The translations under genes were made by a program, and so were the position numbers. A model generated the notes under the pieces. That model did not search any database and had not been told where the DNA came from. It saw nothing but the letters and a program-made list of their open reading frames with translations. From NCBI GenBank assembly GCA_030765805.1, contig JAVCDH010000111.1:5424-69423 (forward strand): DNA of 64,000 nt. The letters are read 5' to 3'. The DNA comes from Candidatus Euphemobacter frigidus. Lineage in GTDB: Bacteria; Auribacterota; Erginobacteria; Erginobacterales; Erginobacteraceae. How positions within the stretch are numbered: position 1 is the stretch's first letter; each line of letters begins with the position of its first letter. Of this stretch, positions 25,582 to 57,876 are shown one piece after another.

Positions 25582-28500
25582 CTACAACCCCCGGAAGATA
25601 GTGGTGATGGTCCCGGGGGCGGAGCGGTAAAGTTTTACCTCCCGGTCAGGGTCGCCGGAGTAGCACCACCGGTGGACGGGATTCGGGTCCGACCAGCTGG
25701 TCCGGTCCCGATGGGTGGCCCGCTCGACGCCTGCCCAGGTCACCTGCAGGCTGGTCCCGTTCACATCCAAGACCACGCCGTTACCCCGCCATTGGGGGAT
25801 CCCCTGGAAGTGCCAGTAAACACTCCCCCGCCGGGAGAGAGTGTCTTTTACCTCGATCCGGCGGTCCCCCTGCTTATAGAGAGTGATCTCCCTGGTCCAG
25901 GTCTTCTTCCCATCCTTAAGTCGGGTAACGCTGCGGGAAAACTTCTCGTTGTTCACCCAGCTTACAAGCTGCGCCGAGGAATATTTTCCCAGGATATCGG
26001 AGATATTGGCTTTTGTCTTGCCGTGGTTAAAGAAGGTCATGGTCAATCCGGTCATGAACTCTTCCGGCCCGTAAGAGAGACTGACAATGTTGTTGGCAAA
26101 GCCGCACTTTCCCGACTTGGCGGCCGGATAAGCCGGGTCCAGCATCAGGAAGAGGGCGTTATCCTCCCAGCCGGTACGGTGAATGATCTTGTCGAGCTGG
26201 ATCTTGAAGGATTTCAGGCTCTCGTCATAGCCATCGGCGATGCTCTTCTTGATCGCCATCGGCCGGTAGATGGCCCGGCTGCCGGTGCGGGCGAGACCGG
26301 GGCGCTGGGGCTGAAGTCCTTCGTTCAGATACCAGTAAAGATAAAGCGGGTTGAGGAGGATCGCGAACGGCCCCCACTGGGGGGCCTCATAGCCGTAGGT
26401 GTTGCGGCCGAAGTCGCCGACCCGGTGGGTCGTCCCGTAGCCGAACATCTCCTGGAGGAGCCACTTGGCCTCCCGGGCCAGCCGGATATGGTCGGGGTTG
26501 CCGTCATCGAGAACCGTGGTGGCCACGGCCAGGGGGGCCATGTAGTGATCGACGTAGTTCTGACGATAGTCCCGCCCATAGGCCGGGTTATAGCCGTTGT
26601 GGGGAAAGGTATCGATAATCCATTCCACCTGGCGGATAAAGTTGCTCTTCCAGGCCACTCCCCACTCGTCCAGATCCGGGATGGTCATCCGGTTGGAGTA
26701 GAGCGCCACCCGGAGCATCTCCCGGATGAAGAGCCCCTGGTAGTGGCGGGAGTTATACGGCAAGGTCCAGGTGTCGTCGTAGCTGAGGAGACGGTTGGCC
26801 CAGGAGATCATCTTGTCTCCCCGCTTGCCGCCGACGATATAACCGACTACGGCGTTGAGGCCGCAGACGATCCCCTGGGCATAGTTGCCGTGATTATAGA
26901 AGCCCCGTTTTTCGATCGCCAGCCGGTAGAACTTCTCTTCAATCTCTACCCGCTCTTCCTTGCTGAAGAACCCCTCACCCAGCATCGCCAGGTAGGCCTC
27001 GGCCACATCGGCGATGTAGCGACAGTGCTCCTCGCCCCCCCAGTCGAATTTCGTGTCCCGGATCAACTCCAGAAGCTTCTCCTTGAAGTATCTCCCGGTC
27101 GGTTTATAGCCGGTAACCAGGTATATAAACGCGGTGTTGGGGAGGTAGTCGTAGAGGGCATACTTCTTATCCACCTTGCTGAGATCCCATTCATAGATCT
27201 TGAAGTAATGACCATTCGCAAAATCGATCCAGTCGACGTAATCCTGGAGCCGGAGGTCCACATCGTAAGCGGAAGCCCCGGCAACGAGGCCGTAGGCGGA
27301 TCCGAGCGGCTGCTGGCTGTTCCTCGCGCCCGGTGTCCCGTAACTTCCGGAGGAGCCGTAGACCTTGCTGGTCGGCGCCGTGTTCCAGTTACCGGCGCTC
27401 CCGGGGATTGCCGGGTCGATCCGCTCCATCGAGTACCCCGGATCCCCCGCGAACCAATTGCCGGCGCAGTTGACCGTGTCCACGCTGGCGGCGCTTGAAT
27501 CCACCAGAACCAGATGGCCCCCGCTGCTGTTCATCTGCTTATTGAGATAGGTCATGTTGCCGATTGCACCGCTGGGAGAGTTGGTCGACAGGACAAAGTA
27601 CCCGCCGCCTGCAATCGAATAAGAGCTGGAGAACGATATAGGAGACCAGGCAGCGGAGTCATCCCTCAGCTTCCATCCGTCCAGGCTGACAGTGGAGGTT
27701 CCGTTATTATAAAGCTCGATCCACTGCTGGTCGGTACCGTCGAAAGTCCCACCCCAGGCGATCTCGTTGATGACCACATCCCCGGTGGTTCCGGGGGAAC
27801 CGGTGGGACCAGGGACCGCCGACGGCGTCGGAACCGGTGTCGGGGGCGGCGAGGGCGTGGTGAGGAGGATGTTGAAGAACTCAAGGTAGACCTTCTTGTA
27901 GGTCTCCTGGAGAAGCGGGTAGTTGAGTGTCTCCTTGTGCGGGTCATACGGCTCCGCCGGGGGCTTCCACTCGTAGACGGGTGGGGTGGGGTTCAGGACC
28001 GGGAACGCGTCCTCCTCGTCCCCGCCGGAGGGTGATCCCTCTCCTGAAGGGGTGGGACCCGGGATCCAGTCGGATGGATCCTTCGATGCCGGCGTCGGAG
28101 TCGTCACCACCTCGGCCCGGGATCCCGCGGGGGGGGCTTGCCAGACGTAGATGTTCCCGTCCCGGGCCGCCCCGAAGATCTGCTCCCCGTCGAGATAGAC
28201 CCACTGCATCGACTGCTTGGCCTCGTCGATCACTCCGTAGAGGCTCAGTCCCGGCTTCCGCCAGATGTAGATACCGTTATCGAGGCTCGACCCGTAGATA
28301 TAATTACCGCCGGAGACGACGGAAGTCACCTGGTTGAGGGGCTCGGCCAGGATCTTCTCCAAACGAAACGATCCATAATCCCAGAGGTAGATATTGCTGT
28401 CCGCTGAAGCTCCGTAGATGTAATCATTATCCGCCCGGACCGCGTTCAGGTCGTCGGTCGGGCCGGCCAGGATCTTTTTCAGGTTGAAGGTTGTCCGATC

Positions 28501-30852
28501 CCAGATATTGACATTGTAATCCCTTCCCCCGCTCCCCGCGTAGATCCGGGAGGTGTCGGCGAATACCGAGTTCAGCCACCCCCCGGACCCGGAGAGCCTG
28601 GTCTGGAGATTGAAGTCGGACCGGTTCCAGATATAGAGAGACCGGTCATAGTTGGCGGAATATAGGTAGTCGGCGTCCGCGTAGACCGACTCGGCGAAGT
28701 ACTGCCCATCCCCCAGGACATGGAGCAGCTCGAAGGTCCGCCGGTCCCAGACGTAGACCCGGCTGTCGTCGTTCGAGCCGTAGATATAGTCGCCATCGGC
28801 ATAGACCGAGAGCATCTCCTTGCAATCGGGGACGGTAAGACTCGTCACCGGCCGGTAGGACGACCGGTCCCAGATATATATATGCTTATCTTCACTGGCT
28901 CCGTAGATATAGTCACCGTCGGCATAGACCCCGAGCATCCAGCCCTTTCCCCGGGAGAGAACAGCCAGAAGCGTGAACTCAAGCGGAGTCGGTGAGGGGG
29001 CCGGAGTCGGAGTCGTGAAAAACCGGATTCCAAAGGTAGGCGAGGGCGAAGGCAGCCGGGTTAGGAGCACTTCCGGTGTACCGGTCGGAACCGCGGTAGG
29101 AGGGGGCGGCGGAGTATGGAACCCTTTCGGAGAGGGCGTCGTCGAGGGCGGCGGTGTCGGCGTTCGGTAATCCGCCGGCGTGGCGGAAGGCGGCGGGGTC
29201 GGGGTCGGAGTGGGAGACGGCGACGGCGTGGGGGTCGGGGTTCTCTCAGCCAGCCAGAGATATATATTGCCGTCGGCATTGGCCCCGTAGATATAATGGG
29301 TAAAGGAATCTCCGGGCCGGTAGCGGTCGGCAAAGACACCATTCATCGGCAACCCGCTCGCCTTCAGTTTCGTCTGGGGGGAGAAGTCCGTGAGTCTCCA
29401 GGCGTTGATTGCACCGTCGGGACCGGCGCCATACAGGTAGTTCCGGTCGTCGGAACTGAGACTCCCGATCGGACCGGGCGCCCCGCGGAGAGCGGTCTGG
29501 AGATTGAAAGAGCCTTTCACCCAGGCAGCGGCGGCCGGGGCGGACCCTCCGCCGTAGCAGTAAGAACTGTCAACGGCCGCCGCCCACATAATATCCGTGC
29601 TCTCGGAGAAGGCACCGGCCGGAACAAAGGTCTCTCTATCCCAGAGATAGAGAGACCCGTCCACGTTGGCCCCGTAAATATAATCGTCATCCAGGCAGAC
29701 CGAGAGCATCGGCCCCAGCCCCCGGTCAAGGACAGTCTGGAGGCTGAAATCGGAGGCAGCCCAGAGATAGATCCTCCCATCGTTGTTGGCCCCGCAGATG
29801 ATCTCGGAATCTCCGGCTACCGAGTACATGAAGCCCCCGCCCTGGTCGAGAACGGCCAGCAGAGAGAAGCCTCTCCCTCGAATGTCGTAGTCCCAGGCGT
29901 AGACGTTGCTGTCCGCGCTCGCTCCGTATAAACGCCGGTAAGATGACCCGCGGACAGACTGTATTCCATAGATATTCCCGGCGGTATACCCGCCAATAGT
30001 CTCCAGAAAATTGAAACCGGCCGGTCCCCTCTCCCAGATATAGACCCGGCCGTCCCCGGCTCCTCCGTAGAGATACCGGTCGTCCGCCCAGACCGACCAG
30101 ACCGGGCTGGCGACCGGGATGATATACACCAGATCGAAAGGCGCCGGACCGGGGATGGAGGCAGGAGAAGGCAGGGGGGACGGGGTTAAAGACCGGAGTT
30201 GCTTGCGAGAGGCGGTGGGTGTCGCAGTCGGGGTTGGGGTTGGGGTTGACGTCGGAGTGGGAGATGGTGTGGTGGATGGAGTTGGACTGGGCGCCGGGGT
30301 CGGGGTCTTCGGGGTACGGGTCGTGATGGTGGTCGGGGTAGGAGCCGGGGTGGGGGTCATAAAGGGGATACCGAACAACTCCAGGTAGACCGCTCGATAG
30401 GCCTTTTCAAGAAGGGAATAGGAGAGGCTCTTCTTATGGGGATCATACTTCGTCTCCGGATAAACATCATACTCGACCCTGGTCCGGTCGGGGTATATAA
30501 TGATGATCTCCTGCTTCTCGGACGTGTGATCGAAGATACCCCCCGCCGGCCGGATTTGCCGGGCCCCCGGGCCGAAGGCGGCAAAGAGCTCTTCCGGCGG
30601 GATCCAGGCCGCGGAGACCATCTTCGGGGTCGATGTCGGGGTCGGACTTGGAGTTCTATACGCATCCGGTGTCGGAGTCGGGTGGATCCGGAACCAGGTT
30701 CGGATCGGCGACGCGCCGACAACAACCGGGGATTCCGGGGGGAGGGGCATGGCCCCGTCACCCCACAGATCGGACAGAGAGAGGACCAGCCATACCCCTG
30801 AAATTATCGCGCCCGTGATCAGCGTCTTCATCATCTTCATTCTCACTCTCAT
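25582..30852 (-). CDS. giant (1756 aa) secreted multidomain protein: signal peptide, Pro/Thr-rich linkers, two WD40/PQQ-like beta-propeller repeat blocks, lamin-tail domain (LTD), and a C-terminal polysaccharide-lyase-like region (heparinase II/III- or alginate-lyase-like, tentative)
   Basis: Signal peptide MKTLITGAIISGVWLVLSL. There are about 14 repeats of the form D-G-x-IY-x-W-D...L-x-G (YIYGA.ADGNIYLW). The LTD signature is GDVVINEIAWGGT...QWIELYNNG...LDGWKL. Long PTPTPSPSPTP linkers separate the blocks. The C-terminal 600 aa are alpha-rich with an NHGNYAQG motif. The gene starts 32 bp downstream of gspM on the same strand. Confidence 0.75.
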   Translation of the reverse strand: MRVRMKMMKTLITGAIISGVWLVLSLSDLWGDGAMPLPPESPVVVGASPIRTWFRIHPTPTPDAYRTPSPTPTSTPKMVSAAWIPPEELFAAFGPGARQIRPAGGIFDHTSEKQEIIIIYPDRTRVEYDVYPETKYDPHKKSLSYSLLEKAYRAVYLELFGIPFMTPTPAPTPTTITTRTPKTPTPAPSPTPSTTPSPTPTSTPTPTPTATPTASRKQLRSLTPSPLPSPASIPGPAPFDLVYIIPVASPVWSVWADDRYLYGGAGDGRVYIWERGPAGFNFLETIGGYTAGNIYGIQSVRGSSYRRLYGASADSNVYAWDYDIRGRGFSLLAVLDQGGGFMYSVAGDSEIICGANNDGRIYLWAASDFSLQTVLDRGLGPMLSVCLDDDYIYGANVDGSLYLWDRETFVPAGAFSESTDIMWAAAVDSSYCYGGGSAPAAAAWVKGSFNLQTALRGAPGPIGSLSSDDRNYLYGAGPDGAINAWRLTDFSPQTKLKASGLPMNGVFADRYRPGDSFTHYIYGANADGNIYLWLAERTPTPTPSPSPTPTPTPPPSATPADYRTPTPPPSTTPSPKGFHTPPPPPTAVPTGTPEVLLTRLPSPSPTFGIRFFTTPTPAPSPTPLEFTLLAVLSRGKGWMLGVYADGDYIYGASEDKHIYIWDRSSYRPVTSLTVPDCKEMLSVYADGDYIYGSNDDSRVYVWDRRTFELLHVLGDGQYFAESVYADADYLYSANYDRSLYIWNRSDFNLQTRLSGSGGWLNSVFADTSRIYAGSGGRDYNVNIWDRTTFNLKKILAGPTDDLNAVRADNDYIYGASADSNIYLWDYGSFRLEKILAEPLNQVTSVVSGGNYIYGSSLDNGIYIWRKPGLSLYGVIDEAKQSMQWVYLDGEQIFGAARDGNIYVWQAPPAGSRAEVVTTPTPASKDPSDWIPGPTPSGEGSPSGGDEEDAFPVLNPTPPVYEWKPPAEPYDPHKETLNYPLLQETYKKVYLEFFNILLTTPSPPPTPVPTPSAVPGPTGSPGTTGDVVINEIAWGGTFDGTDQQWIELYNNGTSTVSLDGWKLRDDSAAWSPISFSSSYSIAGGGYFVLSTNSPSGAIGNMTYLNKQMNSSGGHLVLVDSSAASVDTVNCAGNWFAGDPGYSMERIDPAIPGSAGNWNTAPTSKVYGSSGSYGTPGARNSQQPLGSAYGLVAGASAYDVDLRLQDYVDWIDFANGHYFKIYEWDLSKVDKKYALYDYLPNTAFIYLVTGYKPTGRYFKEKLLELIRDTKFDWGGEEHCRYIADVAEAYLAMLGEGFFSKEERVEIEEKFYRLAIEKRGFYNHGNYAQGIVCGLNAVVGYIVGGKRGDKMISWANRLLSYDDTWTLPYNSRHYQGLFIREMLRVALYSNRMTIPDLDEWGVAWKSNFIRQVEWIIDTFPHNGYNPAYGRDYRQNYVDHYMAPLAVATTVLDDGNPDHIRLAREAKWLLQEMFGYGTTHRVGDFGRNTYGYEAPQWGPFAILLNPLYLYWYLNEGLQPQRPGLARTGSRAIYRPMAIKKSIADGYDESLKSFKIQLDKIIHRTGWEDNALFLMLDPAYPAAKSGKCGFANNIVSLSYGPEEFMTGLTMTFFNHGKTKANISDILGKYSSAQLVSWVNNEKFSRSVTRLKDGKKTWTREITLYKQGDRRIEVKDTLSRRGSVYWHFQGIPQWRGNGVVLDVNGTSLQVTWAGVERATHRDRTSWSDPNPVHRWCYSGDPDREVKLYRSAPGTITTIFRGL

Positions 30853-31491: not shown

Positions 31492-33120
31492 CTATTTTAT
31501 GTGGGCAAGAGGAATATTGTACTCAAACTCCACGGTCACAAGCTGCCCCCCCTTTCTCCTGGTCTTCGAACCCTTGGCTTCGTGAATCTTGTCCCCCTCA
31601 AAATACCTGGATTTGGCTAACGCGTTCTTAATCAGGTCTACCGAACGGAAGCTATTGGTTCTCCCCCGGAAGAGGACACGCTTGTTGTTGATATCCATGG
31701 TTACAACCTGGACTTTAAGTGAATCGGGGATGATCCGGCTGATCTCCCGCAGGATATCCAGAGCGGAGACCGAGACCATGTCGTGGTAGAACTTTAACTC
31801 CCTCCCGGCCTGTTCCACCCCTTCCTTCATTGCTTTCAATTCGCTTTCCGTTTCCGGCTCCGGTTGATCGGGGAAGGTCCGGCGCACGATCAGACTGATT
31901 CTCCGGGCCAGGTTCTGGGACGTGATCTCTTCCAGCCGTATCTTCCAGAACAATCCCGCCGCCAGCACGACAATCAACCCCACAACAAGGCCGGCGGTCA
32001 ACAGGAGGCGGCGGCGGGTCTTCTCCCAGTACCCTTCAAAGGCAAACTCGGCTATGCGAAAATCAAGCCGGGCCCGGATCGGCGTAACTTCTCCCAGGGC
32101 CAGTCCCAGCGCCGGCAAGGCTGCGGCGGGATGATCGGGGAACTTCTTCGCTTTGAGCGAACTCCAGGGGTCGAGGTCCAGCACCTTCAGATCGAGCTTC
32201 CGGCCCAGATACTCCTTCAACCCCGCCTGACGGGTGGCGTCCCCGGCCAGGATGAGATTTAGCGGAGCGCGCCCACCCGTGACCGTGATCGCTGAATCCA
32301 CCGTTCTGAGCAACTCCGCCTCCAACCGGGAGAAGGCGTCTCCGCAAACGGAGATGATCCGGTCCCGGAGGGAAGAATCCTCAGCGGCGGCGGCTTTCAT
32401 CGACTCCGCCTCCATGAATTCGCATCCCATCTTCTCCATTATCGCCGCGGTCACCACATCTCCTCCCCACGAAAAACTCCTCAAGGAGACCACTGTGCCC
32501 CCCAGTAAAAATGCCACGCCGGTATGAACGGCCCCAATCTCCAGAAGCATCGTCACCTCGTCGGGGGGGAGAGTGGGCAAGTAGGTATAGGCCCGGCAGC
32601 TTCCCAGAAGATCAATGCTCACTTTAGTCGGATCCAGGCCGACCTCGGAGAGCAAGCCGAGGTGAGCTTCCAGGACCACTTTTTTTACGGCAACCATTAT
32701 TACCCTGGTCTTTCCTTCCGCCAGCTCTTCCGCCGGCCAGAAATCCATCACAACCTGCTCCAGGGGGAAAGGGACATGAATCTCGGCCTCCGCCGCTATC
32801 ACCTGTCTGATCTGAGAAAGTCGGGCAAAGGGCATCTCCAGGGACCGGACGAAGACCCGATGGACGGGGAGGGTACTGCAGATAACCTCTTCTTTCCATC
32901 CGACCTCACTGACCAACCGCCGCAACTGTTCCAGCACCACTTCCGGCGGCGCGGGGCCCGGCCTTTCCCGGGGGATGATGCATTCCCGCAGATCGGAGAG
33001 ACGGATCCTTTTGCCGCTCCTCTTCAGGGCTACCATCCGGATGCCCGTCGTCCCGATCTCGATCGCCCGGCAGCTATAAACCGATGCCGATCCTTTCTGG
33101 AATAGATCTTTTATGTTCAT
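31492..33120 (-). CDS. gspL: type II secretion system protein GspL (PilM-like actin-fold cytoplasmic domain fused to PilN-like TM/periplasmic domain)
   Basis: N-terminal region SCRAIEIGTTGIRMVAL is PilM/GspL-cyto-like. There is a central TM helix (LLLTAGLVVGLIVVLAAGLFW) and a periplasmic C-terminal domain. Operon position between gspK and gspM. Confidence 0.65.
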   Translation of the reverse strand: MNIKDLFQKGSASVYSCRAIEIGTTGIRMVALKRSGKRIRLSDLRECIIPRERPGPAPPEVVLEQLRRLVSEVGWKEEVICSTLPVHRVFVRSLEMPFARLSQIRQVIAAEAEIHVPFPLEQVVMDFWPAEELAEGKTRVIMVAVKKVVLEAHLGLLSEVGLDPTKVSIDLLGSCRAYTYLPTLPPDEVTMLLEIGAVHTGVAFLLGGTVVSLRSFSWGGDVVTAAIMEKMGCEFMEAESMKAAAAEDSSLRDRIISVCGDAFSRLEAELLRTVDSAITVTGGRAPLNLILAGDATRQAGLKEYLGRKLDLKVLDLDPWSSLKAKKFPDHPAAALPALGLALGEVTPIRARLDFRIAEFAFEGYWEKTRRRLLLTAGLVVGLIVVLAAGLFWKIRLEEITSQNLARRISLIVRRTFPDQPEPETESELKAMKEGVEQAGRELKFYHDMVSVSALDILREISRIIPDSLKVQVVTMDINNKRVLFRGRTNSFRSVDLIKNALAKSRYFEGDKIHEAKGSKTRRKGGQLVTVEFEYNIPLAHIK

Positions 33121-33180: not shown

Positions 33181-33224
33181 GAAGTGCCTAAAGTGAACTA
33201 AAGTGAGCTAAAGTGACTAAAGTT
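33181..33224. repeat. tandem 9-mer array (CTAAAGTGA x3-4) in the gspL-gspK spacer
   Basis: gaagtgcctaaagtgaactaaagtgagctaaagtgactaaagtt is read directly from the sequence. Confidence 0.9.
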
Positions 33225-33230
33225 AAAAAA

Positions 33231-36529: not shown

Positions 36530-36556
36530 TAGTCACCAGTCACCGGTCACCAGTCC

Positions 36557-36967
36557 CTATTCCCCACTTCCCCCTTCTATATCCCAGTTCATGATGTCGG
36601 CGTTATCCCCCGTCCCCCCCGCCACCCCATCTTTCCCGTAGGATGCGATATCCACTTCCTGGCTATGCTGGCTGACCGATGAATAGAAGTAGGGATTGCC
36701 CCAGGGATCTTTGGGGACCTTCGGCAAGTACTTGGGGACCAGGGGCGACAGGGAATCGGGGTATGAGTAATGGTCGGCGAAATACATCCCCAGCGCCAGC
36801 TCGATATTCTTGATCCCGGCCTGGGCGGCGCCCCGCTGCCCTTTCCCGATTGCCTGAAAAAGCTTGGGGGCGATAACGGCAGCCAGAAAGCCGATAATCG
36901 CGATCACCACCAATAACTCCACCAGTGTAAAGCCCCGGGACATTTTGAGTCTGGTTCTTGAACTCAT
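36557..36967 (-). CDS. gspG: type II secretion system major pseudopilin GspG
   Basis: RGFTLVELLVVIAIIGFLAA followed by the GspG-specific DPWGNPYFY motif. 136 aa. Confidence 0.9.
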   Translation of the reverse strand: MSSRTRLKMSRGFTLVELLVVIAIIGFLAAVIAPKLFQAIGKGQRGAAQAGIKNIELALGMYFADHYSYPDSLSPLVPKYLPKVPKDPWGNPYFYSSVSQHSQEVDIASYGKDGVAGGTGDNADIMNWDIEGGSGE

Positions 36968-37016: not shown

Positions 37017-37086
37017 ACAACTTTAGTCACTTTTCCGCCGGAGGCGGATCAGCCTCTGGCTGAAGTTCACTTTAGTCACTTTATTC
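37017..37086. repeat. TCACTTTAG-type tandem repeats flanking a short GC hairpin in the gspG-gspF spacer
   Basis: caactttagtcactttt ... ccgccggaggcgg ... gaagttcactttagtcactttatt, read directly from the sequence. Confidence 0.85.
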
Positions 37087-38307
37087 CTATGCTACCACCT
37101 GGCTCATCTGAAAGATGGGCAGGAGAATTGAGAGAACGATATATCCGATCACTATCCCCATGGTCACTATCATGATCGGCTCCAGCAGCGAGGTCATCGC
37201 GCTGACCGACGTCTCGACCTCATCCTCATAAGACTGGGCGATCTTCTCCAGCATCGCCTCCAGGGCTCCGCTGGTCTCTCCCACCGAGATCATATGCACC
37301 ACGATCGGGGGAAAGACCCGGCTCTTTCGGAAGGGACCGGCGACGGATTGACCGGCCCGTATCGCTTCAATGGCTTTTCCGATCGCTTGAGCGATCGAGG
37401 TGTTATTTACTATATTCCTGACAATGCCCAGCGACTCGATCAGGGGGGCTCCGCTTGAGAGCAGGGTGGCCAAGGTCCGGCTGAACCTGACCACCGCGAT
37501 CTTCCTGATCAGGGGACCAAAGAGGGGGAGACGAAGTTTGAGTCGGTCGAGAAAGAACCTTCCCCGGGGCCCTTTCTTCCAGAAAGCGAAAAGAAAATAC
37601 AGCCCTCCGGCGATGAGGATGATCACCCACCAGTACCCCCGGATAAAATCGCTGATATTAAGGAGGATGACGGTGGGAAGAGGCAGGGCCTGCTGGGTCT
37701 CGGCAAAGATGCTGGTAATGGTGGGGACTACATTTACTAAAAGAAAGATGATCACCGCAACGCTGATAAAGGCCACCAGGATCGGATATACCATCACACT
37801 CCTGATATGATTACGCATCTTTACGTTCTTCTCGGTGAGGTCGGCCAGCCGCTCCAGAACCACGTCCAGAGCGCCGGCCGCTTCCCCGGCCTGAATCATG
37901 TTGGTATAAAGAGGAGAGAAGACCCGGGGGAATCGCCGGAGTGATTCGGCGAAGTTTTTCCCGGCATTGACATCGTCGCGAACTTTGATGATCACCCGCT
38001 TCAGGGGACTCTTCTCCAGCTGATCGATCAGAGCGTTCAGTGACTGGACCAACTGGAGGCCGGAACTGAGAAGCGTAGCCATCTGGCGGGTAAAGACCGC
38101 CACATCCCCGGCCTTGACCCGGTGGAGAAGCCGCGAGAGAGCCAGGTCGCTTCTCAGATCAACCTTCTCTCCCGACTCCCGGACCTCGGTCGGAAAGATC
38201 CCCTGCCGGCGCAATTTGGCCCGGGCATCGGCGGAGCTGTCGGCATCGATGATGCCGGTTACCTGCTCGCCCCCGCTGTTCAATGCTTTGTAGTCGAAGA
38301 CTGGCAT
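37087..38307 (-). CDS. gspF: type II secretion system inner-membrane platform protein GspF
   Basis: 406 aa with two GspF-domain repeats and three TM segments. The N-terminus MPVFDYKALNSGGEQVTGII is a classic GspF/PilC start. Confidence 0.9.
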   Translation of the reverse strand: MPVFDYKALNSGGEQVTGIIDADSSADARAKLRRQGIFPTEVRESGEKVDLRSDLALSRLLHRVKAGDVAVFTRQMATLLSSGLQLVQSLNALIDQLEKSPLKRVIIKVRDDVNAGKNFAESLRRFPRVFSPLYTNMIQAGEAAGALDVVLERLADLTEKNVKMRNHIRSVMVYPILVAFISVAVIIFLLVNVVPTITSIFAETQQALPLPTVILLNISDFIRGYWWVIILIAGGLYFLFAFWKKGPRGRFFLDRLKLRLPLFGPLIRKIAVVRFSRTLATLLSSGAPLIESLGIVRNIVNNTSIAQAIGKAIEAIRAGQSVAGPFRKSRVFPPIVVHMISVGETSGALEAMLEKIAQSYEDEVETSVSAMTSLLEPIMIVTMGIVIGYIVLSILLPIFQMSQVVA

Positions 38308-38314: not shown

Positions 38315-38394
38315 AAGTGAGCTAAAGTGAACTAAAGTGACTAAAGTGAGCTAAAGTGAACTAAAGTGACTAAAGTGAACTAAAGTTTAAAGTT
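38315..38394. repeat. tandem 9-mer array ([ACG]CTAAAGTGA, about 8 copies) filling the gspF-gspE spacer
   Basis: aagtgagctaaagtgaactaaagtgactaaagtgagctaaagtgaactaaagtgactaaagtgaactaaagtt is read directly from the sequence. It has no spacers, so it is not CRISPR. Confidence 0.9.
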
Positions 38395-38423
38395 AGACTT
38401 ACGCTTTGTTTTAACATTTTGTC

Positions 38424-40142
38424 TCAAGCTTCTATGATATCCTCCTGGGTTACCCGGATAACCTCTTCGATAGTCGTGATCCCTTCAACGACCTTCCGGG
38501 CCCCGTCCATCCGGAGAGTCAACATCCCCTTCTTCAGGGCCACTTTCTTGATCTCTCCGGTATTGGTCCGCTCCAGGATCATCCGGCGGATATCCTCGTC
38601 CACCAGGAGGATCTCGAAGATACCGCTCCTCCCCATATAACCGGATTGAAAGCACTTATCGCATCCCTTCCCCCGGTAGAGTTTCCCCTCCGAGATATCA
38701 TCCGGGGAGAGCCCGATCTCGCGGAGGGACTCTTCACCGGGATGATAGCTTTCCCGGCAGTGCGGACAGATCATCCGAACCAACCGTTGAGCCATGATCC
38801 CTACCACCGAGGATGAGACCAGGTACGGCTCCACCCCCATATCGATGAGCCGGGTTATCGCCCCCGCCGCGTCGTTGGTATGGAGGGTGGAGAAGACCAG
38901 ATGCCCGGTGAGACTGGCCTGGATCGCGATCTCGGCGGTCTCATTATCCCGCATCTCCCCGATCAGGACCACGTCGGGGTCTTGCCGGAGGATCGAGCGG
39001 AGTCCGTTGGCGAAGGTGAGACCGATCTTGGGTTTTACCTGAATCTGGCCGATCCCGGGGATCTGATACTCAATCGGATCCTCGACCGTGATGATATTCT
39101 GCTCCATCGAGTTCACGTTGCTCAAGGCCGCGTATAGGGTGGTAGTCTTGCCGGAACCGGTCGGGCCGGTTACCAGGATGATGCCGTGGGAGAGCTTGAT
39201 CAGCCGGGAGAAGAGCGCCAAGCGATCATCACTCATTCCCAGATCGTGAAGGCTGTAAAGCTGGGCGGACCGGTCCAGCAACCGGAGTACGATTCTTTCC
39301 CCGAATGAGATCGGGATTGTGGAAACACGCAGGTCAATCTCCCGGTCGGTGATCTTAATTTTAATCCGGCCGTCCTGGGGAAGGCGTTTCTCGGCGATAT
39401 TCAGGTTAGCCATGATCTTAACCCGGGAAGTGATCGCGGACTGGTACTGCTTGGACGGCTTGATCGATTCATAGAGGATGCCGTCTATCCGGTAACGCAC
39501 CCGGAGCTCTTTTTCATAGGGCTCGATGTGGATATCGCTGGCCCGGACTTTGACGGCTTCAAAGAGAATCAGATTGACCAGCTTGATCACCGGAGCCTTG
39601 GTGGCGATGTCCAGGAGATCTTCCGCCTCATCAGTCAGGGTCACCAGTTCAGTGATTTCCTCTTCCTCCATCCCCTCCAGCATCGCCTCGGCGGCGCCGT
39701 CGGCATGGCCGTATGAATGGTTGGCGACCCTGATGATCTCATCAGGGGCACAGACGACCGGGTGCACTTCCTTCTCCAGCAAAAGACGGAGGTCGTCCAG
39801 GGGCTGAAGCTCGAGAGGGTTGGCCATGGCCACGGCGACCGTTCCCTTCTCTTCCTTAAGCGGGATCAGCTGATGGGCCAACAAAAAATTCAGCGGGATG
39901 CGGGAGACGATCTCCTTATCCACCATCTCCACCGAGAGCGAATCGAGATAGGGGAGATTCAGATGACGGCTCAGCGCCCGACGATACTGTTCCTGATTGA
40001 TAACCCCCATCCCGAACAAGATATCACCCAGTTGTTTCCCCTGGTCAGGGCCTTCCTGGCGCGACCGGGCCGTATCGAGGACCGCCCGATCCACCACTTT
40101 ATCGGCCAGTAAAATCTCTTCGATTGATTGATTCGCAATCAT
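38424..40142 (-). CDS. gspE: type II secretion system ATPase GspE
   Basis: Walker A motif LVTGPTGSGKTTTLYAAL. N-terminal MshEN/T2SE_N domain. C-terminal zinc-binding tetracysteine CPHC...CDKC. 572 aa. Confidence 0.95.
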   Translation of the reverse strand: MIANQSIEEILLADKVVDRAVLDTARSRQEGPDQGKQLGDILFGMGVINQEQYRRALSRHLNLPYLDSLSVEMVDKEIVSRIPLNFLLAHQLIPLKEEKGTVAVAMANPLELQPLDDLRLLLEKEVHPVVCAPDEIIRVANHSYGHADGAAEAMLEGMEEEEITELVTLTDEAEDLLDIATKAPVIKLVNLILFEAVKVRASDIHIEPYEKELRVRYRIDGILYESIKPSKQYQSAITSRVKIMANLNIAEKRLPQDGRIKIKITDREIDLRVSTIPISFGERIVLRLLDRSAQLYSLHDLGMSDDRLALFSRLIKLSHGIILVTGPTGSGKTTTLYAALSNVNSMEQNIITVEDPIEYQIPGIGQIQVKPKIGLTFANGLRSILRQDPDVVLIGEMRDNETAEIAIQASLTGHLVFSTLHTNDAAGAITRLIDMGVEPYLVSSSVVGIMAQRLVRMICPHCRESYHPGEESLREIGLSPDDISEGKLYRGKGCDKCFQSGYMGRSGIFEILLVDEDIRRMILERTNTGEIKKVALKKGMLTLRMDGARKVVEGITTIEEVIRVTQEDIIEA

Positions 40143-40152: not shown

Positions 40153-42417
40153 TTATTTATGGAACCGCCCGGTGCCTTTCTGATCTTCCTCGCTCTCGTC
40201 GTGACGCCCGAAAGAGATATTCGGGAGACTGTCCAGGAAGGAGCGCGAGGTAGAACTTTTCCCGACGGGTTTCATTTCAGAGTCCCCACCGGCAGGAGCG
40301 ATGGGAAGTTCATCTGGAGGCGGGAGGGCGCGGTGCGCTTCTTCATAATCCTTCATAGCCCCCAGTTGCAAGGCGTAACTGGCCTTCAGATCCTGGTATT
40401 TCATTGCTTCTTTCTTCTGCGTTTCTCTCTCCCGGTCGGCCATCTCGGACTCCCGTCCCTTTATCCGGGAGTCGAGCTCCGGAGCCTGATGACGCTTGAG
40501 ATTGGTCAGGTCGGCAATCTGCTGGGTGGTCCGCACCACTCGGGGGGTAATAAAGATCAGGAGGTTATTCTTCTCCTTCCGGGTGGAGGTCTGCCGGAAG
40601 AGGTTGCCAATAAGCGGGATGTCACCCAGGATCGGAATCTTGCTTTCGGCCTCGTACCAGTCGTCCCGAATCAGCCCCCCGATCACTATGGTATGGTTGT
40701 CCTTCACGATCACCGATGTCTCGGTCTCCCGGTCGAAGGTCTCCGGAGTAAGAGTTACCCCGCCACTCACTTCACCACTGGTCAGGCTGGATATCTTCTG
40801 GTGGATCTCCATCCGCACCATCTGGGCCTTGCTGATATGGGGGGTTATCGTCAGCTCAATCCCGACATCCTTGTATTCGATATCCTGATAATCACGGCTA
40901 TCAGTACTCCCGATCTCGATCTTGCTCACGTAGGGAATGTTCCGTACCACCTTGATCTTTGCCTCCTCGTTGTCCATCGTCAGGACCTGGGGGGTGGCCA
41001 GGATGTTGACGTCCGAGTTGGTCTGGAGGGCGTGGAGCATGACCGCGAAGTCGGGAAGGCTGGTGCCCGTGCCGGCCATCTTCTGAATAAACCCCAGTGA
41101 GAGGCCGTCTATACCCGGTGATTGGTGCCCTCCCTCAGCGTCGGTGGCCCAGCTGGAAAGGGCGCCGCTAAAGACCGACTGGGCCATCCCCTCCGCGTTG
41201 TTCCGGCCGGTTCCCATAGTCGCGATATCAGGAAATCCGGTGCCGTCATTGTCCATGTCGATCCAATCCACACCCAGCTCGAATGTCTTATCATAGGCGA
41301 TCTCGGCGATCAGAACCTCCACCAGGACCTGGTCGCGGACCACGTCCAGCTTCTGGATGATCTTAATCAGGTCGGCGTAGGCTTCCTGGGTGGCATCGAT
41401 GATCAGGGCGTTGGTCCCCTTGTCTTCGCTGATCAGGGCCGGCTCCTCTCCGCCTTTTGGTTTGCGCTTGGAGACGATGCTGTTGAGGACCTTGGCCATA
41501 TCCTCGGCATTAGTATTTTTAAGAAAGTAGACATGGATATTGCTCCGTTCGGTCTCCACATCCAGCCGTTTGATCAGGTCCAGAACCCGCTTGGTGTCTT
41601 CATCGTTGGCCAGGATAATCAGGGAGTTGGTCCGTTCGTCGGGGATAATCTTGAGATTCTTCTCACTGGTCTGGAGCTGGCCGGCCTTCTGCCGTCTGCG
41701 GGGGGTGGGGGGAGCGCCCGGGACCTTGCCCGCTTCCTCGATCACCTGCGAGAGCTCCCCGGCCAGGATGTCGGCCGCCGCGTAACGGATGGGGACAACG
41801 GTGATCCTGGTTTCATAACCGGGGATATCGAGCTCCTTGATGATCTTGACGAGGCGGTGGATATTGGAGGAGATGTCGGTGACGATCAGGGTGTTGGTAA
41901 CCGGGTAGGCGATCACGCTGGAATCTTTCGAGAAGAGCTGGCCCAGCGCCGTCCGTACTTTCTGCACGTCCGCGTACTGGAGGGGGATGAGCTGAGTAAT
42001 GATCGTGTCCTCCGGAACGATCTGCTCCAGATTATCTCCCACCGACATGGCGATATTCCTCTTGCTCGCTTCCTTCTTGGTGGAGATTTTGATCACCTTG
42101 CCGGAGGGGACGGTGACAAAGCCGCGAACCTCCAGGATCGACTCGAATACTTTATAGACTTCGTCCAGGGGGATCTTGGTTGGGGAGATGACCGTAACCG
42201 GACCGCGGACGTTCTGATCGATAATGAAGTTCTTTCCGGTCAGGTCACTGATATACTTAATCACCACTCGGATCTCGGTATTTTCAAAGTCCATGCTGAC
42301 GAGCCCATCTTCCTCCTCAAACCCGCCGGTTTGAGCCCGCCCCAAGCCTTGAGATATCAGTAACCCGAGGAGAAGCCCCAGCCAGATCGCAACAATCAAT
42401 TTTCGCAAATATTTCAT
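40153..42417 (-). CDS. gspD: type II secretion system secretin GspD
   Basis: 754 aa with signal peptide, N0-N3 domains and the C-terminal secretin domain (ILGDIPLIGNLFRQTSTRKEKNNLLIFITPRVV). Confidence 0.9.
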   Translation of the reverse strand: MKYLRKLIVAIWLGLLLGLLISQGLGRAQTGGFEEEDGLVSMDFENTEIRVVIKYISDLTGKNFIIDQNVRGPVTVISPTKIPLDEVYKVFESILEVRGFVTVPSGKVIKISTKKEASKRNIAMSVGDNLEQIVPEDTIITQLIPLQYADVQKVRTALGQLFSKDSSVIAYPVTNTLIVTDISSNIHRLVKIIKELDIPGYETRITVVPIRYAAADILAGELSQVIEEAGKVPGAPPTPRRRQKAGQLQTSEKNLKIIPDERTNSLIILANDEDTKRVLDLIKRLDVETERSNIHVYFLKNTNAEDMAKVLNSIVSKRKPKGGEEPALISEDKGTNALIIDATQEAYADLIKIIQKLDVVRDQVLVEVLIAEIAYDKTFELGVDWIDMDNDGTGFPDIATMGTGRNNAEGMAQSVFSGALSSWATDAEGGHQSPGIDGLSLGFIQKMAGTGTSLPDFAVMLHALQTNSDVNILATPQVLTMDNEEAKIKVVRNIPYVSKIEIGSTDSRDYQDIEYKDVGIELTITPHISKAQMVRMEIHQKISSLTSGEVSGGVTLTPETFDRETETSVIVKDNHTIVIGGLIRDDWYEAESKIPILGDIPLIGNLFRQTSTRKEKNNLLIFITPRVVRTTQQIADLTNLKRHQAPELDSRIKGRESEMADRERETQKKEAMKYQDLKASYALQLGAMKDYEEAHRALPPPDELPIAPAGGDSEMKPVGKSSTSRSFLDSLPNISFGRHDESEEDQKGTGRFHK

Positions 42418-42428: not shown

Positions 42429-43403
42429 TTATTCCAGCTCCAAAAGCTCAACCTGAACCATGTACTCCAGTTGGAGGAGTTCTGATTGCCTTTTTATCTC
42501 CACGATCACGGTCTTTTCGGTCTGAACCTCCTGGAGCAGTTCCAGGGCTCTCTTCTTCCCGGTGATCATCTTCTCGTTTACCGTACGAATAATGTCTCCC
42601 TTCTTGATCCCCAGATAGGTCGAGAGATGGCGCGGAGGCAGAATCAGTATCTCGTACCCCTCGGAGTCTCCCCGCCGGGGTTTTCCCGGCGGATAATACG
42701 GGCGGCAACCGACACCGCTCAACGCCTTCATAATCTGGGCGACCACTTCATCGACCTTGACCTTGATCTGATCTACTTTGATATATTTCCAGAGACCTTT
42801 CTTGCTGACGAGCCATTTATTATTAGCGATCAACTGCCAGAGACCTTTCTTGCTGATCAGCCATTTGTTCTTACCGACCGGGCGAAGAATGCGAGAGAGG
42901 GGAATGGATCCCTTATTAACCTTGATGCTATCTTTAAACGCGGTTAAGGTAAAGACATTCCCCTTGAAATCCATGACTACCTGGTTTCGCTCGATCTCCA
43001 GCACTACCGCCTCGGCTACCGAGTCTCCCACCCGGTAAGAGTCCTGTTTTTTATTCACAACCTCCTCAATAAAGGCCAAACTTTTCGACTGATCGGCCCG
43101 GACCGTCGTTCCCAGTAGATTTAATTTGGGGGGAGGAACTTCCTGCGGCCTGGGGGTGGGCGGAGGCGCTTCCTCCGGGGCGGCAAACTTCTCTCTCCAA
43201 AGATCGCGGGAAACGATTACTTCATAATACGATTCCCCGGGCGGAGTAGGGACCGCCTCGGCCTCTATCGATTGGTCGGGGGAAGCCCAGTCATCTTCAA
43301 CCGGTCGGTCCTGGTAATACGTCCAGGCCAGGTAACCGCTTCCGGTCACCAGCAGGACAGCCAGTACCAGGTTGATCAACATTATTTTTCTTCGAGACAA
43401 CAT
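42429..43403 (-). CDS. gspC: type II secretion system protein GspC (TM anchor, HR domain, C-terminal PDZ-like domain) with an internal 11-aa tandem duplication
   Basis: N-terminal TM helix, a Pro-rich linker, an HR-like domain (LNLLGTTVRADQSKSLAFIEE...YRVGDSV) and a C-terminal PDZ (GYEILILPP...GIKKGDIIRTVN). Contains the duplicated peptide NKWLISKKGLW/NKWLVSKKGLW. Confidence 0.6.
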   Translation of the reverse strand: MLSRRKIMLINLVLAVLLVTGSGYLAWTYYQDRPVEDDWASPDQSIEAEAVPTPPGESYYEVIVSRDLWREKFAAPEEAPPPTPRPQEVPPPKLNLLGTTVRADQSKSLAFIEEVVNKKQDSYRVGDSVAEAVVLEIERNQVVMDFKGNVFTLTAFKDSIKVNKGSIPLSRILRPVGKNKWLISKKGLWQLIANNKWLVSKKGLWKYIKVDQIKVKVDEVVAQIMKALSGVGCRPYYPPGKPRRGDSEGYEILILPPRHLSTYLGIKKGDIIRTVNEKMITGKKRALELLQEVQTEKTVIVEIKRQSELLQLEYMVQVELLELE

Positions 43404-47425: not shown

Positions 47426-49267
47426 TTATTCTCCATAATGAGATTTGGGATTTTCAGCCATAGGCTGATCAGCCTCCGGCGGAAGGATCTCAAAGAACCT
47501 CACCATCACCTCTCGCTCAAGATCGATCTTCTCATAGATCGGCCGGAAGAACCTCAACTTCTTCGGTTCATAGATGAGGCGAAAGAGAAACGTCCGGCGC
47601 ATCCTCGATAAGCGGCGGATATGATCGGGACGGGGACCGATGCTGGTACTGCCCCGCATGTTGAAAGTGTCATTTTTTTGATCGACGCCGGTTACGCTGA
47701 AGTAGCGGGTACAGATATGAACATACCTTACTCCGCGCCCGATTAATTCCCGGGCTGCGTCCTCCTCATCTTCCCAGTAGAGCCGGGAGAGGGAGAGATC
47801 TATCCGCGCCGGGGTGGTAATAGGAACCAGGTGGGTGACCGCTTCGATAAAATAGCCCTGGTTCCAGGACGCGAAGATCTTCTCTCCCGGCCGGGAATGG
47901 TCGTTCAACCATCGATAAGCCTCGTATTCAACCTGATCACTACTGGTCCGGGCAGCCAGCAGGACCCAGCCGCCCTGAAGAAAGGCAATGATCAGGAGTA
48001 AAGCGAAGGCCGGCCGGCTTCTTTTCCAGACCGGCAGAAGAACCCAGATGATGGTCACGACAAAGAATCCGGCGAACAACCAGCCGCAGCGCAGAAGAAC
48101 CGGATTGGGCCGAAACACCGGATCGGACAATGTCCTGCCGATCGTCTCCCACAATTGAGAAAGGCTGTAGGGAAGCCCGACATACAGTCGGGCGGCGATC
48201 CCCGGGAATAAAAGGTCAATCGCCAGATAGAGAAGAACTGTGGCCACGGTCACCAGGGCGGCGGTTTTCTTCCAATGCGCGAGTCCCAGCGCCGTCAGCA
48301 TCACCACCGAGAGATCGAGGAGCCGGGCTCCCCGGTTCACGACCAGGGCCAGGGCCATACTGAAGCAGAAGAGACTCAACCCAAAAAACTCCTTCTTCTT
48401 CAAGGCCGTCCAGAACCCCCAGGGAAGGAAGAAGATGAAGAGAGTGTACCGGCCCCAGAAGGCGTCCCGGGGCAGCGGCTGGAGATCGCCGACGACAATC
48501 TTGACCTGCGCCGTGAGATCGATCCCCCTGAACTTCAGGGCCAGGGGGGCGATCCACTCCAGCAGGTGCGCCTTCATGATCCTGAAGAGGGCATAATTCA
48601 ACAGGAGGAGCCCGAGCAGAAAGAGAGCGGCCGCCCATAACGACGGGTTACCTCCCAGCCGGAGACGGAAAAAATACCAGAGGCAGTAGAGGATGACAAT
48701 GACCAGGGCGCCGGCCATCAAGGGCCCGATCTCCAACCCCAGAAGCAGGCAGAGGACCGCGAGAAACGCCGCCGGCGCACGCCTCCCGGGCCTTTTCGCT
48801 CCCCGGATAGCCGTGCCGGTCGACCAGAAGAAGAGGACCATCAGGGGAACCTGAACCAGGTCGTGAGAGAAGTTGACCAGCGAGAGGGTCAGGGGCGCGG
48901 GCAGCAGGGCGAAGACCACCCCGCCCCAAAAACCCGTCTCCCGGCCGGCCCAGCTATCGAGCCAGAAGAAGATCAGAACCGCGGTAACGGCGGAGATAAG
49001 GGCCGCCTCGAAGGCCACTGCCTGATAAAGAACCGCTCCGGGCAGGAGCAAACCGGGGACCCGAAGCAGAAGAAAAGTGGGATCGAGTGTGGAGAGGGTA
49101 AACACTCCCCGGGCGACACCGTAATAAAACCAGATCTCGATCAGGTGAGAAGAGTGCCAGCCGAAGCGGAAGAAGAAGACGAGATCAAGGACAAGGCGGA
49201 GAAGAAAGGCAGCCAGGAAGACGGTGAGTGCAAGCAGGACTTTACGCTGTTTATGGGAGTCGGACAT
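47426..49267 (-). CDS. polytopic membrane protein, GT-C-fold glycosyltransferase-like (ArnT/PMT-like), with C-terminal soluble domain
   Basis: At least 12 predicted TM helices over the N-terminal 430 aa, then a soluble domain of about 180 aa. No catalytic motif was confidently recognised. Confidence 0.35.
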   Translation of the reverse strand: MSDSHKQRKVLLALTVFLAAFLLRLVLDLVFFFRFGWHSSHLIEIWFYYGVARGVFTLSTLDPTFLLLRVPGLLLPGAVLYQAVAFEAALISAVTAVLIFFWLDSWAGRETGFWGGVVFALLPAPLTLSLVNFSHDLVQVPLMVLFFWSTGTAIRGAKRPGRRAPAAFLAVLCLLLGLEIGPLMAGALVIVILYCLWYFFRLRLGGNPSLWAAALFLLGLLLLNYALFRIMKAHLLEWIAPLALKFRGIDLTAQVKIVVGDLQPLPRDAFWGRYTLFIFFLPWGFWTALKKKEFFGLSLFCFSMALALVVNRGARLLDLSVVMLTALGLAHWKKTAALVTVATVLLYLAIDLLFPGIAARLYVGLPYSLSQLWETIGRTLSDPVFRPNPVLLRCGWLFAGFFVVTIIWVLLPVWKRSRPAFALLLIIAFLQGGWVLLAARTSSDQVEYEAYRWLNDHSRPGEKIFASWNQGYFIEAVTHLVPITTPARIDLSLSRLYWEDEEDAARELIGRGVRYVHICTRYFSVTGVDQKNDTFNMRGSTSIGPRPDHIRRLSRMRRTFLFRLIYEPKKLRFFRPIYEKIDLEREVMVRFFEILPPEADQPMAENPKSHYGE

Positions 49268-57752: not shown

Positions 57753-57800
57753 CGCGCCCCTTCTTTGGAATAAGTAAGCGGTAAGTGATTGCTGACTGGG

Positions 57801-57876
57801 GACTGGTGATTGGTTACTGGTTACTGATTACTGATTACTGATTACCGATTACCGATTACCGATTACCGATTACCTT
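57801..57876. repeat. tandem heptamer array (TTACTGA/TTACCGA, about 11 copies) between rlmN and arfB
   Basis: gactggtgattggttactggttactgattactgattactgattaccgattaccgattaccgattaccgattacc is read directly from the sequence. Confidence 0.9.

Follow-up and report, generated by a model that had tools for sequence, protein, structure and literature searches.

The nonamer array of the gspE-gspF spacer

Candidatus Euphemobacter frigidus is a species of Auribacterota from the anoxic zone of Ace Lake, Antarctica (PMC9324843). We analyzed a 64,000-nt stretch of its genome (the window) containing a type II secretion system (T2SS) operon, with all its genes on the minus strand, in which most of the spacer between gspE and gspF is occupied by a tandem array of a 9-nt sequence, CTAAAGTGA. 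The parts of this junction, in the order of transcription, are:

38424-40142, minus strand: gspE (572 aa, T2SSE ATPase), operon-upstream of the main array
38396-38423, no strand assigned: the non-repeat rest of the gspE-gspF spacer, used for comparison with relatives
38315-38395, plus strand: the main array, about 80 nt of the 116-nt spacer
37087-38307, minus strand: gspF (406 aa, T2SSF domains)

The start of gspF is backed by homologs of 406 aa with 100% coverage. A sequence-only reading of the stretch had described eight perfect 9-mers in an unusually long spacer of about 115 bp. The length of the spacer is as claimed and the array is real, but only six of its units are exact; the ends are degenerate, and units of 9 nt and 10 nt occur together. 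Exact copies of CTAAAGTGA begin at 38322, 38332, 38341, 38351, 38361 and 38370 on the plus strand (spacing 10, 9, 10, 10 and 9 nt), and the linkers between the six are A, none, G, A and none. Because of the two unit lengths, the conserved word is better described as an octamer, CTAAAGTG, plus a linker of 1-2 nt. Tandem Repeats Finder reports a period of 29 (2.5 copies, 97% matches, score 137) or, alternatively, a period of 10 (7.4 copies, 89% matches), which indicates that 9-nt and 10-nt units are mixed in the order 10-10-9 and that this triple block is duplicated. The array is also polar. Its outer end, or head, is AAGTGAG (38315-38321), 7 nt from the start codon of gspF, and its inner end, or tail, is aCTAAAGTTtAAAGTTA, where the degenerate units aCTAAAGTTt and then AAAGTTA close the array; it thus leads from AAGTGAG at one end to CTAAAGTTTAAAGTTA at the other, the same polarity that we describe below for other members of the family. 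In the gsp mRNA, transcribed from the minus strand, the array reads (UCACUUUAG)n, which makes it the start-codon-proximal 'right arm' type by comparison with the foldbacks of the family.

There are 14 copies of the exact 9-mer in the window, as compared to an expectation of 0.16, and none of 100 shuffled sequences reached 14. Thirteen of the 14 copies are intergenic, although intergenic DNA makes up only 7.3% of the window (binomial P = 2 x 10-14). Because repeat units are not independent of each other, a fairer tally is that there are four separate arrays, all of them intergenic. The sites at which the 9-mer had been said to recur (gspL-gspK, gspG-gspF and a position near 60877, in both orientations) were all confirmed. 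Chance similarity or an assembly artefact is hardly credible as an explanation. Short-read assemblers do collapse or expand short repeats, which is a general risk, but the excess of exact copies is far too large, the sequence is identical across assemblies made by different pipelines, and there are hundreds of arrays of the same family elsewhere. Rfam 15 gave no matches in the window at the gathering score, and a scan of the window for sigma-70 promoters and terminators did not flag the arrays themselves. Just past the tail of the main array lies a sigma-70-like site (38411-38438, plus strand; TTAACA, a 16-nt spacer and TATGAT; 10 of 12 matches) directed antisense into gspE; it is a consensus match only and does not count as evidence of function.

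The remaining genes of the operon named here and the other occurrences of the 9-mer in the window are:

42429-43403, minus strand: gspC
40153-42417, minus strand: gspD
37066-37083, minus strand: outer half of the gspF-gspG array (mRNA AAUAAAGUGACUAAAGUGAA, 'left arm' type), starting 3 nt past the gspF stop
37037-37060, no strand assigned: GC-rich 24-nt hairpin GCCGGAGGCGGATCAGCCTCTGGC, nested within the gspF-gspG array and splitting its halves
37019-37034, minus strand: inner half of the gspF-gspG array (mRNA AAAAGUGACUAAAGUUG), finishing in the tail motif of the family
36557-36967, minus strand: gspG
33182-33225, plus strand: gspK-gspL array (AAGTGC, three CTAAAGTGA and the tail CTAAAGTTA, 5 nt from the gspK stop)
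32619-32627, minus strand: lone CTAAAGTGA within gspL, the sole genic copy in the window
31492-33120, minus strand: gspL, PilM/PilN-type
60879-60926, minus strand: fourth array, with a UDP-glucose dehydrogenase gene (60930-62261) on one side and an open reading frame (ORF) of 144 aa (60423-60857) on the other

After gspG there are four pseudopilin-type genes, of which gspH, gspJ and gspK were named by weak Pfam matches. The gspK-gspL array has the same orientation as the main array and is likewise of the 'right arm' type in mRNA, whereas the fourth array has sense orientation, with AAGGAGG and the ATG after it. No inverted partner was found near any of the four arrays (within about 300 nt), and we therefore regard them as solo arms. 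The copy inside gspL is probably a chance match.

The mRNA leader of gspF, which ends in ...CUCACUUAUCUAUC directly before the AUG, contains no Shine-Dalgarno sequence. Its absence had been noted for repeat-containing leaders of both gspF and gspE; it holds for gspF but is common, being seen in 29 of the 48 crudely called ORFs of the window (just 19 have one). The gspE leader, in the gspD-gspE spacer, is 10 nt long and free of repeats. Two further proteins of the window can be mentioned here. A 1756-aa protein with WD40 and LTD domains (25582-30852) lies directly downstream of the T2SS operon, a position that is kept in relatives, and a GH5 protein (10974-13424) has coding repeats of 120 and 240 nt at 12702-13411 that correspond to FG-GAP repeats.

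Distribution and anatomy of the nonamer family

The nonamer family is found between genes in at least eight bacterial phyla besides that of the host, and in one phage from Ace Lake. We scanned one genome per species (596 Gb) using two adjacent units as the query; all counts of contigs and arrays are lower bounds. At least 119 genome contigs carry the tandem CTAAAGTG unit, with several metagenome-assembled genomes (MAGs) supplying many contigs. By their phylum labels as deposited, 50 of these contigs are Desulfobacterota, 30 are Planctomycetota (including Pirellulales, Phycisphaerae and Sedimentisphaerales) and 25 are Bacteroidota (Prolixibacteraceae, Tangfeifania, Tenuifilaceae, Lentimicrobiaceae and others). 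The minor carriers among the matches listed are two Calditrichaceae, two Aegiribacteria, and one each from Zixibacteria, Verrucomicrobiota, Anaerolineales, Woesearchaeota and Fontibacillus, and five listed contigs are unclassified or labelled just Proteobacteria/Pseudomonadota. The Fontibacillus match (L033) was not counted as a member of the family; it is a 270-nt tract with a uniform 9-nt period that overlaps ORFs and is possibly coding. Together the matches comprise at least 168 arrays of 2-12 units, 114 of which have three units or more. With equal base frequencies, about 35 two-unit matches and essentially no arrays of three or more would be expected by chance in 596 Gb. In the literature that we searched there was no tandem form of the unit, and single units appeared solely in unrelated primers. 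The idea that the array is a control element specific to the T2SS, or a phase-variable locus, finds no sign in its favor, and the array instead belongs to a dispersed family that crosses phyla.

Using crude longest-ORF calls (ORFs of at least 80 aa) to define gene context, we found that 164 of the 168 listed arrays lie outside ORFs, so that the intergenic enrichment proposed as a check in the sequence-only reading is seen in the family as well as in the window. In the 116 arrays for which both flanking genes were called, both genes are on the strand of the array in 46 cases and both are on the opposite strand in 40, with 86 spacers between co-directional genes, 16 between convergent genes and 14 between divergent genes. 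The ratio of 46 to 40 indicates that array orientation is random relative to transcription, in agreement with the earlier suggestion of a DNA-level repeat. Within the listed arrays there are 224 unit spacings of 10 nt and 173 of 9 nt. The core CTAAAGT is present in 84-100% of units in every lineage group and the octamer CTAAAGTG is constant, whereas linkers are variable (A, C, AA, AG or AT), with lineage preferences–AG and C in Planctomycetota, A in Bacteroidota, and C in the Auribacterota relatives.

We examined polarity and the presence of partners in the 112 intergenic arrays with at least three units. Most of them start with AAGTG(A/C) and nearly always finish with CTAAAGTT(A/G). Inverted units occur within 300 nt past the tail in 67 of the 112 arrays, or about 60% (175 7-mers), but past the head in just 4, and direct copies are found on either side in 6-7. 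This concentration of inverted units past the tail indicates that the usual form of the element is a tail-to-tail inverted pair, with termini AAGTG...CACTT; about 40% of the listed arrays are solo arms. The centers of the inverted pairs are 10-130 nt long, with clusters at 11-25, 45-62 and 100-130 nt. A near-identical 128-nt center is present at four or more loci of one MAG (CSMAG_456: L019, L034, L037 and L056), and centers are partly conserved within phyla too. An Rfam search with composites from eight loci returned nothing but sub-threshold matches to generic miRNA-precursor hairpins.

In the IMG/VR database, 16 contigs carry the tandem unit. Two of them, from Ace Lake metagenomes 3300031227 (L143) and 3300035698 (L139), represent a single tailed phage with a GC content of 47%, whose genes include those for the terminase subunits TerS and TerL, a lambda-type portal protein and two DNA methyltransferases. 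The element occupies at least eight intercistronic spacers in an 11-kb stretch of the phage (L143, 1-11971), where it separates most of the genes from each other; they form a one-directional cluster that includes the packaging genes. Every copy has AG or AA linkers in its left arm and C as the linker in its right arm, which indicates that the copies are derived from one another and that the arms of a copy do not complement each other exactly. At three successive genes, the right arm, ending in ...GGCACTCTAAAACTATAACT (...GGCACTTTAGGCACTCTAAAACTATAACT), runs straight into the ATG as an identical leader with no Shine-Dalgarno. The center of the phage element, AATAATCCACA, matches centers in Planctomycetota MAGs. 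A 214-aa phage protein whose stop codon lies inside an array has a weak DnaA_C-like helix-turn-helix (HTH) match (24.6 bits, against a cut-off of 31.5); we considered it as a possible nonamer binder and set it aside, the match being too weak.

One reading of these data, which we consider rather improbable, is that octamer arrays are binding sites for a sequence-specific DNA-binding protein (nucleoid-associated, ribbon-helix-helix/ParR-like or HTH). Such a protein would coat octamers spaced at 9-10 bp on one face of the helix, and inverted arrays would bind a symmetric oligomer. It is suggested by the fact that the octamer, and not the complementarity of the arms, is what has been conserved. 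The octamer is invariant next to a linker that varies by lineage, the period of 9-10 bp is about one helical turn, arrays are oriented without regard to transcription, pairs are arranged symmetrically, and in arms that do not complement each other exactly it is the word that has been kept and not the stem. Short-repeat arrays of this kind, direct and inverted, are bound in the ParR/parC and omega-heptad systems. However, the proposal of a binding protein, made already in the sequence-only reading, has not led to one: no candidate was found, and there is no par, rep or regulator gene adjoining the arrays of the window. Moreover, anything from 1 to 12 copies occurs and no number is preferred, divergent (promoter-containing) spacers are not enriched (14 of 116), many phyla and a phage would all need to have the one protein, and the heptamer arrays that reside in the same window (below), with their 7-bp period, do not fit helical phasing.

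The same junction in relatives and other repeats of the window

The GspF sequence of the window is deposited, without any difference, under Candidatus Euphemobacter frigidus, and GspF proteins related to it carry the labels PVC group, Auribacterota or Aureabacteria. The gspE-gspF junctions of these relatives, with the amino acid identity of GspF to that of the window, are:

Window: spacer of 116 nt, eight units (six of them exact)
L152, GspF 88%: contig begins inside the spacer, which ends in ...AACTTTAGGCACTTTAAACTTTAGGCACTTTAGGCACTTAGTTATC directly before the ATG; 3-4 units
L132, GspF 83%: spacer of 74 nt, two units
L150 and L151, GspF 95%: 213 nt (L150), a GTAACTACTCAGG...(GGTTCAC)n foldback
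L130, GspF 87%: 283 nt, other hairpin element
L131, GspF 88%: 178 nt, other hairpin element
L133, GspF 76%: 138 nt, other hairpin element

The arrays in the window, L152 and L132 have the same orientation, with the head adjoining the ATG of gspF, and array length appears to change in unit steps over evolutionary time, judging by the 8, 3-4 and 2 units of these three related species. In the close relative L150 the 12 nt beside the gspE stop are similar (GAUAGAAUGUUA, as compared to GACAAAAUGUUA in the mRNA of the window), but the junction holds a different element, a GGTTCAC foldback of the same family as one at 63089-63303 in the window; the two have in common only these roughly 12 nt past the gspE stop and some 7 nt ahead of the ATG. 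In the public assembly L151, positions 1-213, upstream of gspF, include the Illumina adapter sequence AATGATACGGCGACCACCGAGATCTACACTCTTTCCCTACACGACGCTCTTCCGATCT, so the assembly is chimeric at that end. At the next junction, gspF-gspG, the sequence AAGTG(A/C)CTAAAGT starts just past the gspF stop in the window and in L130, L131, L150 and L151. The element is a complete foldback in L130 and L131, and in L151 a GGTTCAC foldback sits between two nonamer arms. The 24-nt hairpin GCCGGAGGCGGATCAGCCTCTGGC is a small dispersed repeat with further copies at 47458-47479 of the window, in the gspF-gspG spacer of L131 and in the gspI-gspJ spacer of L133. It is nested in a nonamer array twice, in the gspF-gspG spacers of the window and of L131; nonamer arrays are thus targets of insertion.

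The layout of these junctions bears on the leading alternative, that the element is an RNA-level intercistronic cassette kept for its role in the polycistronic mRNA. We regard this as unlikely, even if several observations speak for it. In the foldback form, a long, periodically bulged hairpin would join the upstream stop to the downstream start at its base, which could provide coupling of termination to reinitiation, processing of the RNase III type or protection of 3' ends, and it would also supply a leader with no Shine-Dalgarno; in the window, pairing between the right-type arm that precedes gspF and the left-type arm that follows it would loop out the gspF cistron. Heads of arrays do abut gene ends: where the upstream gene is on the same strand, its stop is at a median distance of 15 nt from the head, 11 ORFs terminate in the element's own TGA, and a start codon is no more than 25 nt away from the head in 21 of 69 cases, as compared to 6 of 72 for the tail. 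The phage, with at least eight occupied intercistronic spacers and three right arms that enter an ATG, fits the same pattern, as does the shared layout of the gspF leader in the window, L152 and L132. The computed energy of pairing between the gspE-gspF arm and the oppositely oriented gspF-gspG arm is -52.9 kcal/mol, against -27.8 +/- 4.8 kcal/mol for shuffled partners. TAACTGA repeats, discussed below, likewise stop just upstream of start codons that have no ribosome-binding site (RBS) (PMC4679880).

Other observations speak against it. Solo arms are equally frequent in both orientations, and in 30 of the 116 arrays the flanking genes are convergent or divergent, a setting in which coupling makes no sense. 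The unit lengths of the two arms often differ (9 and 10 nt), which makes the hairpin imperfect, and a hairpin does not need conservation of the octamer sequence. Unrelated elements occupy the same junction in relatives. Of the 25 ORFs whose start is no more than 25 nt away from a head, 22 have no Shine-Dalgarno-like motif, in line with the cassette, but the 3 that have one compare with a background of 5-36%, a difference that is not significant and depends on crudely called start codons.

We also compared the spacers within the host population. GspF was found on 17 contigs, and 10 of these were examined (from NCBI, ENA, JGI and Logan assemblies). The gspE-gspF and gspF-gspG spacers are identical in 9 of 9 independent assemblies, and the gspK-gspL, gspG-gspH and gspJ-gspK spacers in 7 of 7. 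Contigs from the same population match the window at 99.97-100% (100% over 1.3-21 kb, and one contig with 3 mismatches), and because such near-identical contigs are clonal the comparison of spacer copy number has little power. Public metagenome contigs gave no matches to a variable-gap anchored pattern (confirmed to match the window itself) or to a junction 28-mer; the organism is absent there, so this search is uninformative.

We consider it very unlikely that the array is a phase-variable contingency locus, in which slipped-strand changes in unit number at gspE-gspF would tune or switch T2SS expression. It is a short tandem repeat that differs by unit steps between species, and there is a precedent in the heptanucleotide repeats of hmw1A in Haemophilus influenzae (PMC8262952, PMC12721329). 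Like the nonamer array, those repeats consist of short units in tandem and lie in transcribed non-coding sequence ahead of a surface or secretion gene; however, the nonamer array shows no population polymorphism in a clonal sample, and it is not specific to one locus, the family occupying hundreds of sites in many phyla. The identity of the spacer in all nine assemblies argues against phase variation, weakly given that clonality. The array also sits inside an operon between cistrons, in neither a promoter nor a reading frame, and the same family is found beside housekeeping genes. Of the slipped-strand length variation proposed at the outset, the part that stands is the change in unit steps between species; variation within the population was not seen, in a sample of low power.

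Tandem and foldback repeats in spacers are a general habit of the Candidatus Euphemobacter frigidus genome. Other than the nonamer, such repeats occupy the trpB-trpA, gspG-gspH and gspJ-gspK spacers and three further sites of the window; heptamer arrays are at 1740-1787, 36531-36555, 57785-57874 and 63108-63220. In detail:

1740-1787: seven GAACTTC after GAACATC/GAACGTC variants, filling the 87-nt spacer between trpB (545-1741) and trpA (1829-2620), likewise a junction within a conserved operon
36531-36555: 3.6 copies of GGTGACY, making up the entire 27-nt gspG-gspH spacer
57785-57874: graded heptamers GTGACTG, then TTACTGA, then TTACCGA, flanked by a radical SAM gene and a gene with an RF-1 domain
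60265-60398: foldback with arms of about 9-nt units (GCAGAGGAC / TTCTCTGCG) and a 76-nt center, downstream of a DeoC-family aldolase gene
63089-63303: foldback with termini GTAACTACTCAGG...CCTGAGTAGTTAC and (GGTTCAC)n arms, its left half duplicated

Some of these families recur in the relatives–for example, GAACTTC heptamers are also found in the gspK-gspL spacer of L132, and the TTCTCTGCG foldback in its gspF-gspG spacer. A second widespread element, GTCATTGCGAGCG(A/T)AGCGAAGCAATC with an inverted partner, occurs within or beside nonamer foldbacks on contigs of Auribacterota and Planctomycetota (L133, gspF-gspG and gspL-gspM spacers; L068, L084, L101 and L104).

Nature of the element and comparison with known repeats

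On balance, we think that the gspE-gspF array is probably a solo arm of a dispersed foldback repeat, which arrived by insertion or recombination and grew by slippage. A dispersed repeat at the DNA level is indicated by the combination of properties described above: its members are multi-copy, intergenic, indifferent to the direction of transcription, polar and usually paired, with conserved centers, unit-step changes in length, and turnover at the same junction. The element, or a seed of it, would have reached the gspE-gspF junction as DNA, its insertion perhaps mediated by a putative trans-acting factor recognizing the octamer CTAAAGTG. The arm would then have been lengthened by slipped-strand or unequal exchange, with the duplication of a 29-nt block of three units as the last step. 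The array would be co-transcribed as a structure-free leader of gspF that has no Shine-Dalgarno and reaches to within 7 nt of the start codon, and its persistence would be due to the tolerance of operon spacers. As mRNA, the gspE-gspF spacer is less structured than shuffled sequences (minimum free energy -15.6, as compared to -19.6 +/- 3.2 kcal/mol; z = +1.25), and its centroid structure is unpaired. If the array affects the expression of the T2SS, it would do so generically, through the uncoupling of gspF from gspE and possibly through pairing with the arm after gspF, rather than a dedicated switch.

Several points weigh against this reading. Neither a trans-acting partner nor a function came to light, no transposase or recombinase is encoded within the 64-kb window, and at 88 composites we saw no consistent target-site duplication, although degenerate units blur the boundaries and make this a weak test. 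There is no clean pair of filled and empty sites, and no empty gspE-gspF site among the relatives, so we infer mobility only from dispersal and turnover. The arrays of the window are solo and do not themselves form a foldback, and gene calls at the comparison loci are crude longest-ORF calls. Lastly, the octamer is exact across phyla and there are at least eight copies in 11 kb of a compact structural operon of the phage; both observations are more in keeping with a selected function than with neutral or selfish DNA.

The nearest described phenomenon to the nonamer family is that of the TAACTGA heptamer repeats, which are direct repeats in marine Beggiatoaceae, Cyanobacteria and Bacteroidetes (MacGregor 2015, PMC4679880). 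Like the nonamers, these are short tandem units that are almost wholly intergenic and form many sets per genome, with an identical unit in distant phyla, no known vehicle and a function that is unknown; they often stop beside RBS-less start codons, and they show unit-step indels between strains (PMC4679880). The differences are in the unit (7 nt, as compared to 9-10 nt), in direction (147 of 170 Beggiatoa sets are directed to a start codon, whereas the nonamer ratio of 46 to 40 shows no bias), in pairing (there is a single inverted repeat in the Beggiatoa genome, whereas an inverted pair is the usual nonamer form), and in hosts, which for the nonamer are Desulfobacterota, Planctomycetota, Bacteroidota and Auribacterota (PMC4679880 for the Beggiatoa figures). 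The TTACTGA heptamer of the window differs by one base from the Beggiatoa unit.

The nonamer family can also be set beside other classes of short repeat, and each shares some of its features. Cyanobacterial STRR heptamers reportedly have small dispersed repeats nested inside them (Mazel 1990; Elhai 2008). The two systems are alike in having several short tandem intergenic families per genome and nested small hairpins (compare 37037-37060), but the STRR units and lineages are different, and we know of no foldback arrangement with conserved outer and inner ends described for STRR. To our knowledge, DnaA boxes, parS, uptake sequences (USS/DUS) and Chi do not resemble the octamer CTAAAGTG, as judged by eye.

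REP, BIME and REPIN sequences are extragenic repeats for which roles in the stability of mRNA and in termination have been proposed (Di Nocera et al. 2013, PMC3733652). They resemble the nonamer family in being often located within operons, in both orientations, commonly as hairpin-forming inverted pairs and in mosaics with small motifs. However, the REP unit is a palindrome of 20-40 nt with a GTAG/CGTC tag and is tied to a RAYT transposase, whereas the nonamer unit is a non-palindromic tandem octamer with no tag, whose arrays fold worse as RNA than shuffled sequences; we saw no RAYT, and association with RAYT was not specifically tested. MITEs are non-coding, dispersed elements with inverted ends, a center conserved within each genome and variable tandem-repeat content, all of which apply to the nonamer family: terminal inverted repeats are present family-wide (if absent from the solo copies of the window), and dispersed copies with a conserved core in one genome are found in CSMAG_456 and in the phage. 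On the other hand, the nonamer family has no target-site duplication that we could see, no autonomous partner and no demonstrated transposition, and its large fraction of solo arms is a further difference. A MITE of Porphyromonas gingivalis has an internal minisatellite (PMC4596501), whereas in the nonamer family the repeats form the arms. In this respect the closest structural analog is to be found in eukaryotes with regard to arms built of short tandem units. Foldback (FB) transposons of Drosophila have inverted termini made of tandem short repeats.

Short intergenic tandem repeats that are common to unrelated phyla, such as the cyanobacterial STRR and the TAACTGA repeats, have been known for decades, but how they spread and what they do is not understood. 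The nonamer family adds to them a longer unit, a tail-to-tail foldback of polar arms that abuts stop and start codons, and a much wider range of hosts. Tentatively, and as a possibility about which we have clear doubts, the CTAAAGTG foldback may be the cis element of a system not described so far, either a new prokaryotic class of foldback mobile DNA whose arms are tandem octamers or an intercistronic expression cassette working with a dedicated octamer-binding factor, spread horizontally among anaerobic bacteria of waters and sediments in at least nine phyla with phages as vehicles. The Ace Lake phage is a concrete candidate for such a vehicle and offers a compact system for testing function. 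For the T2SS itself the practical consequence is small. For annotation, the finding means that long, odd spacers in the conserved operons of such uncultured lineages are repeat insertions and not lineage-specific regulators.

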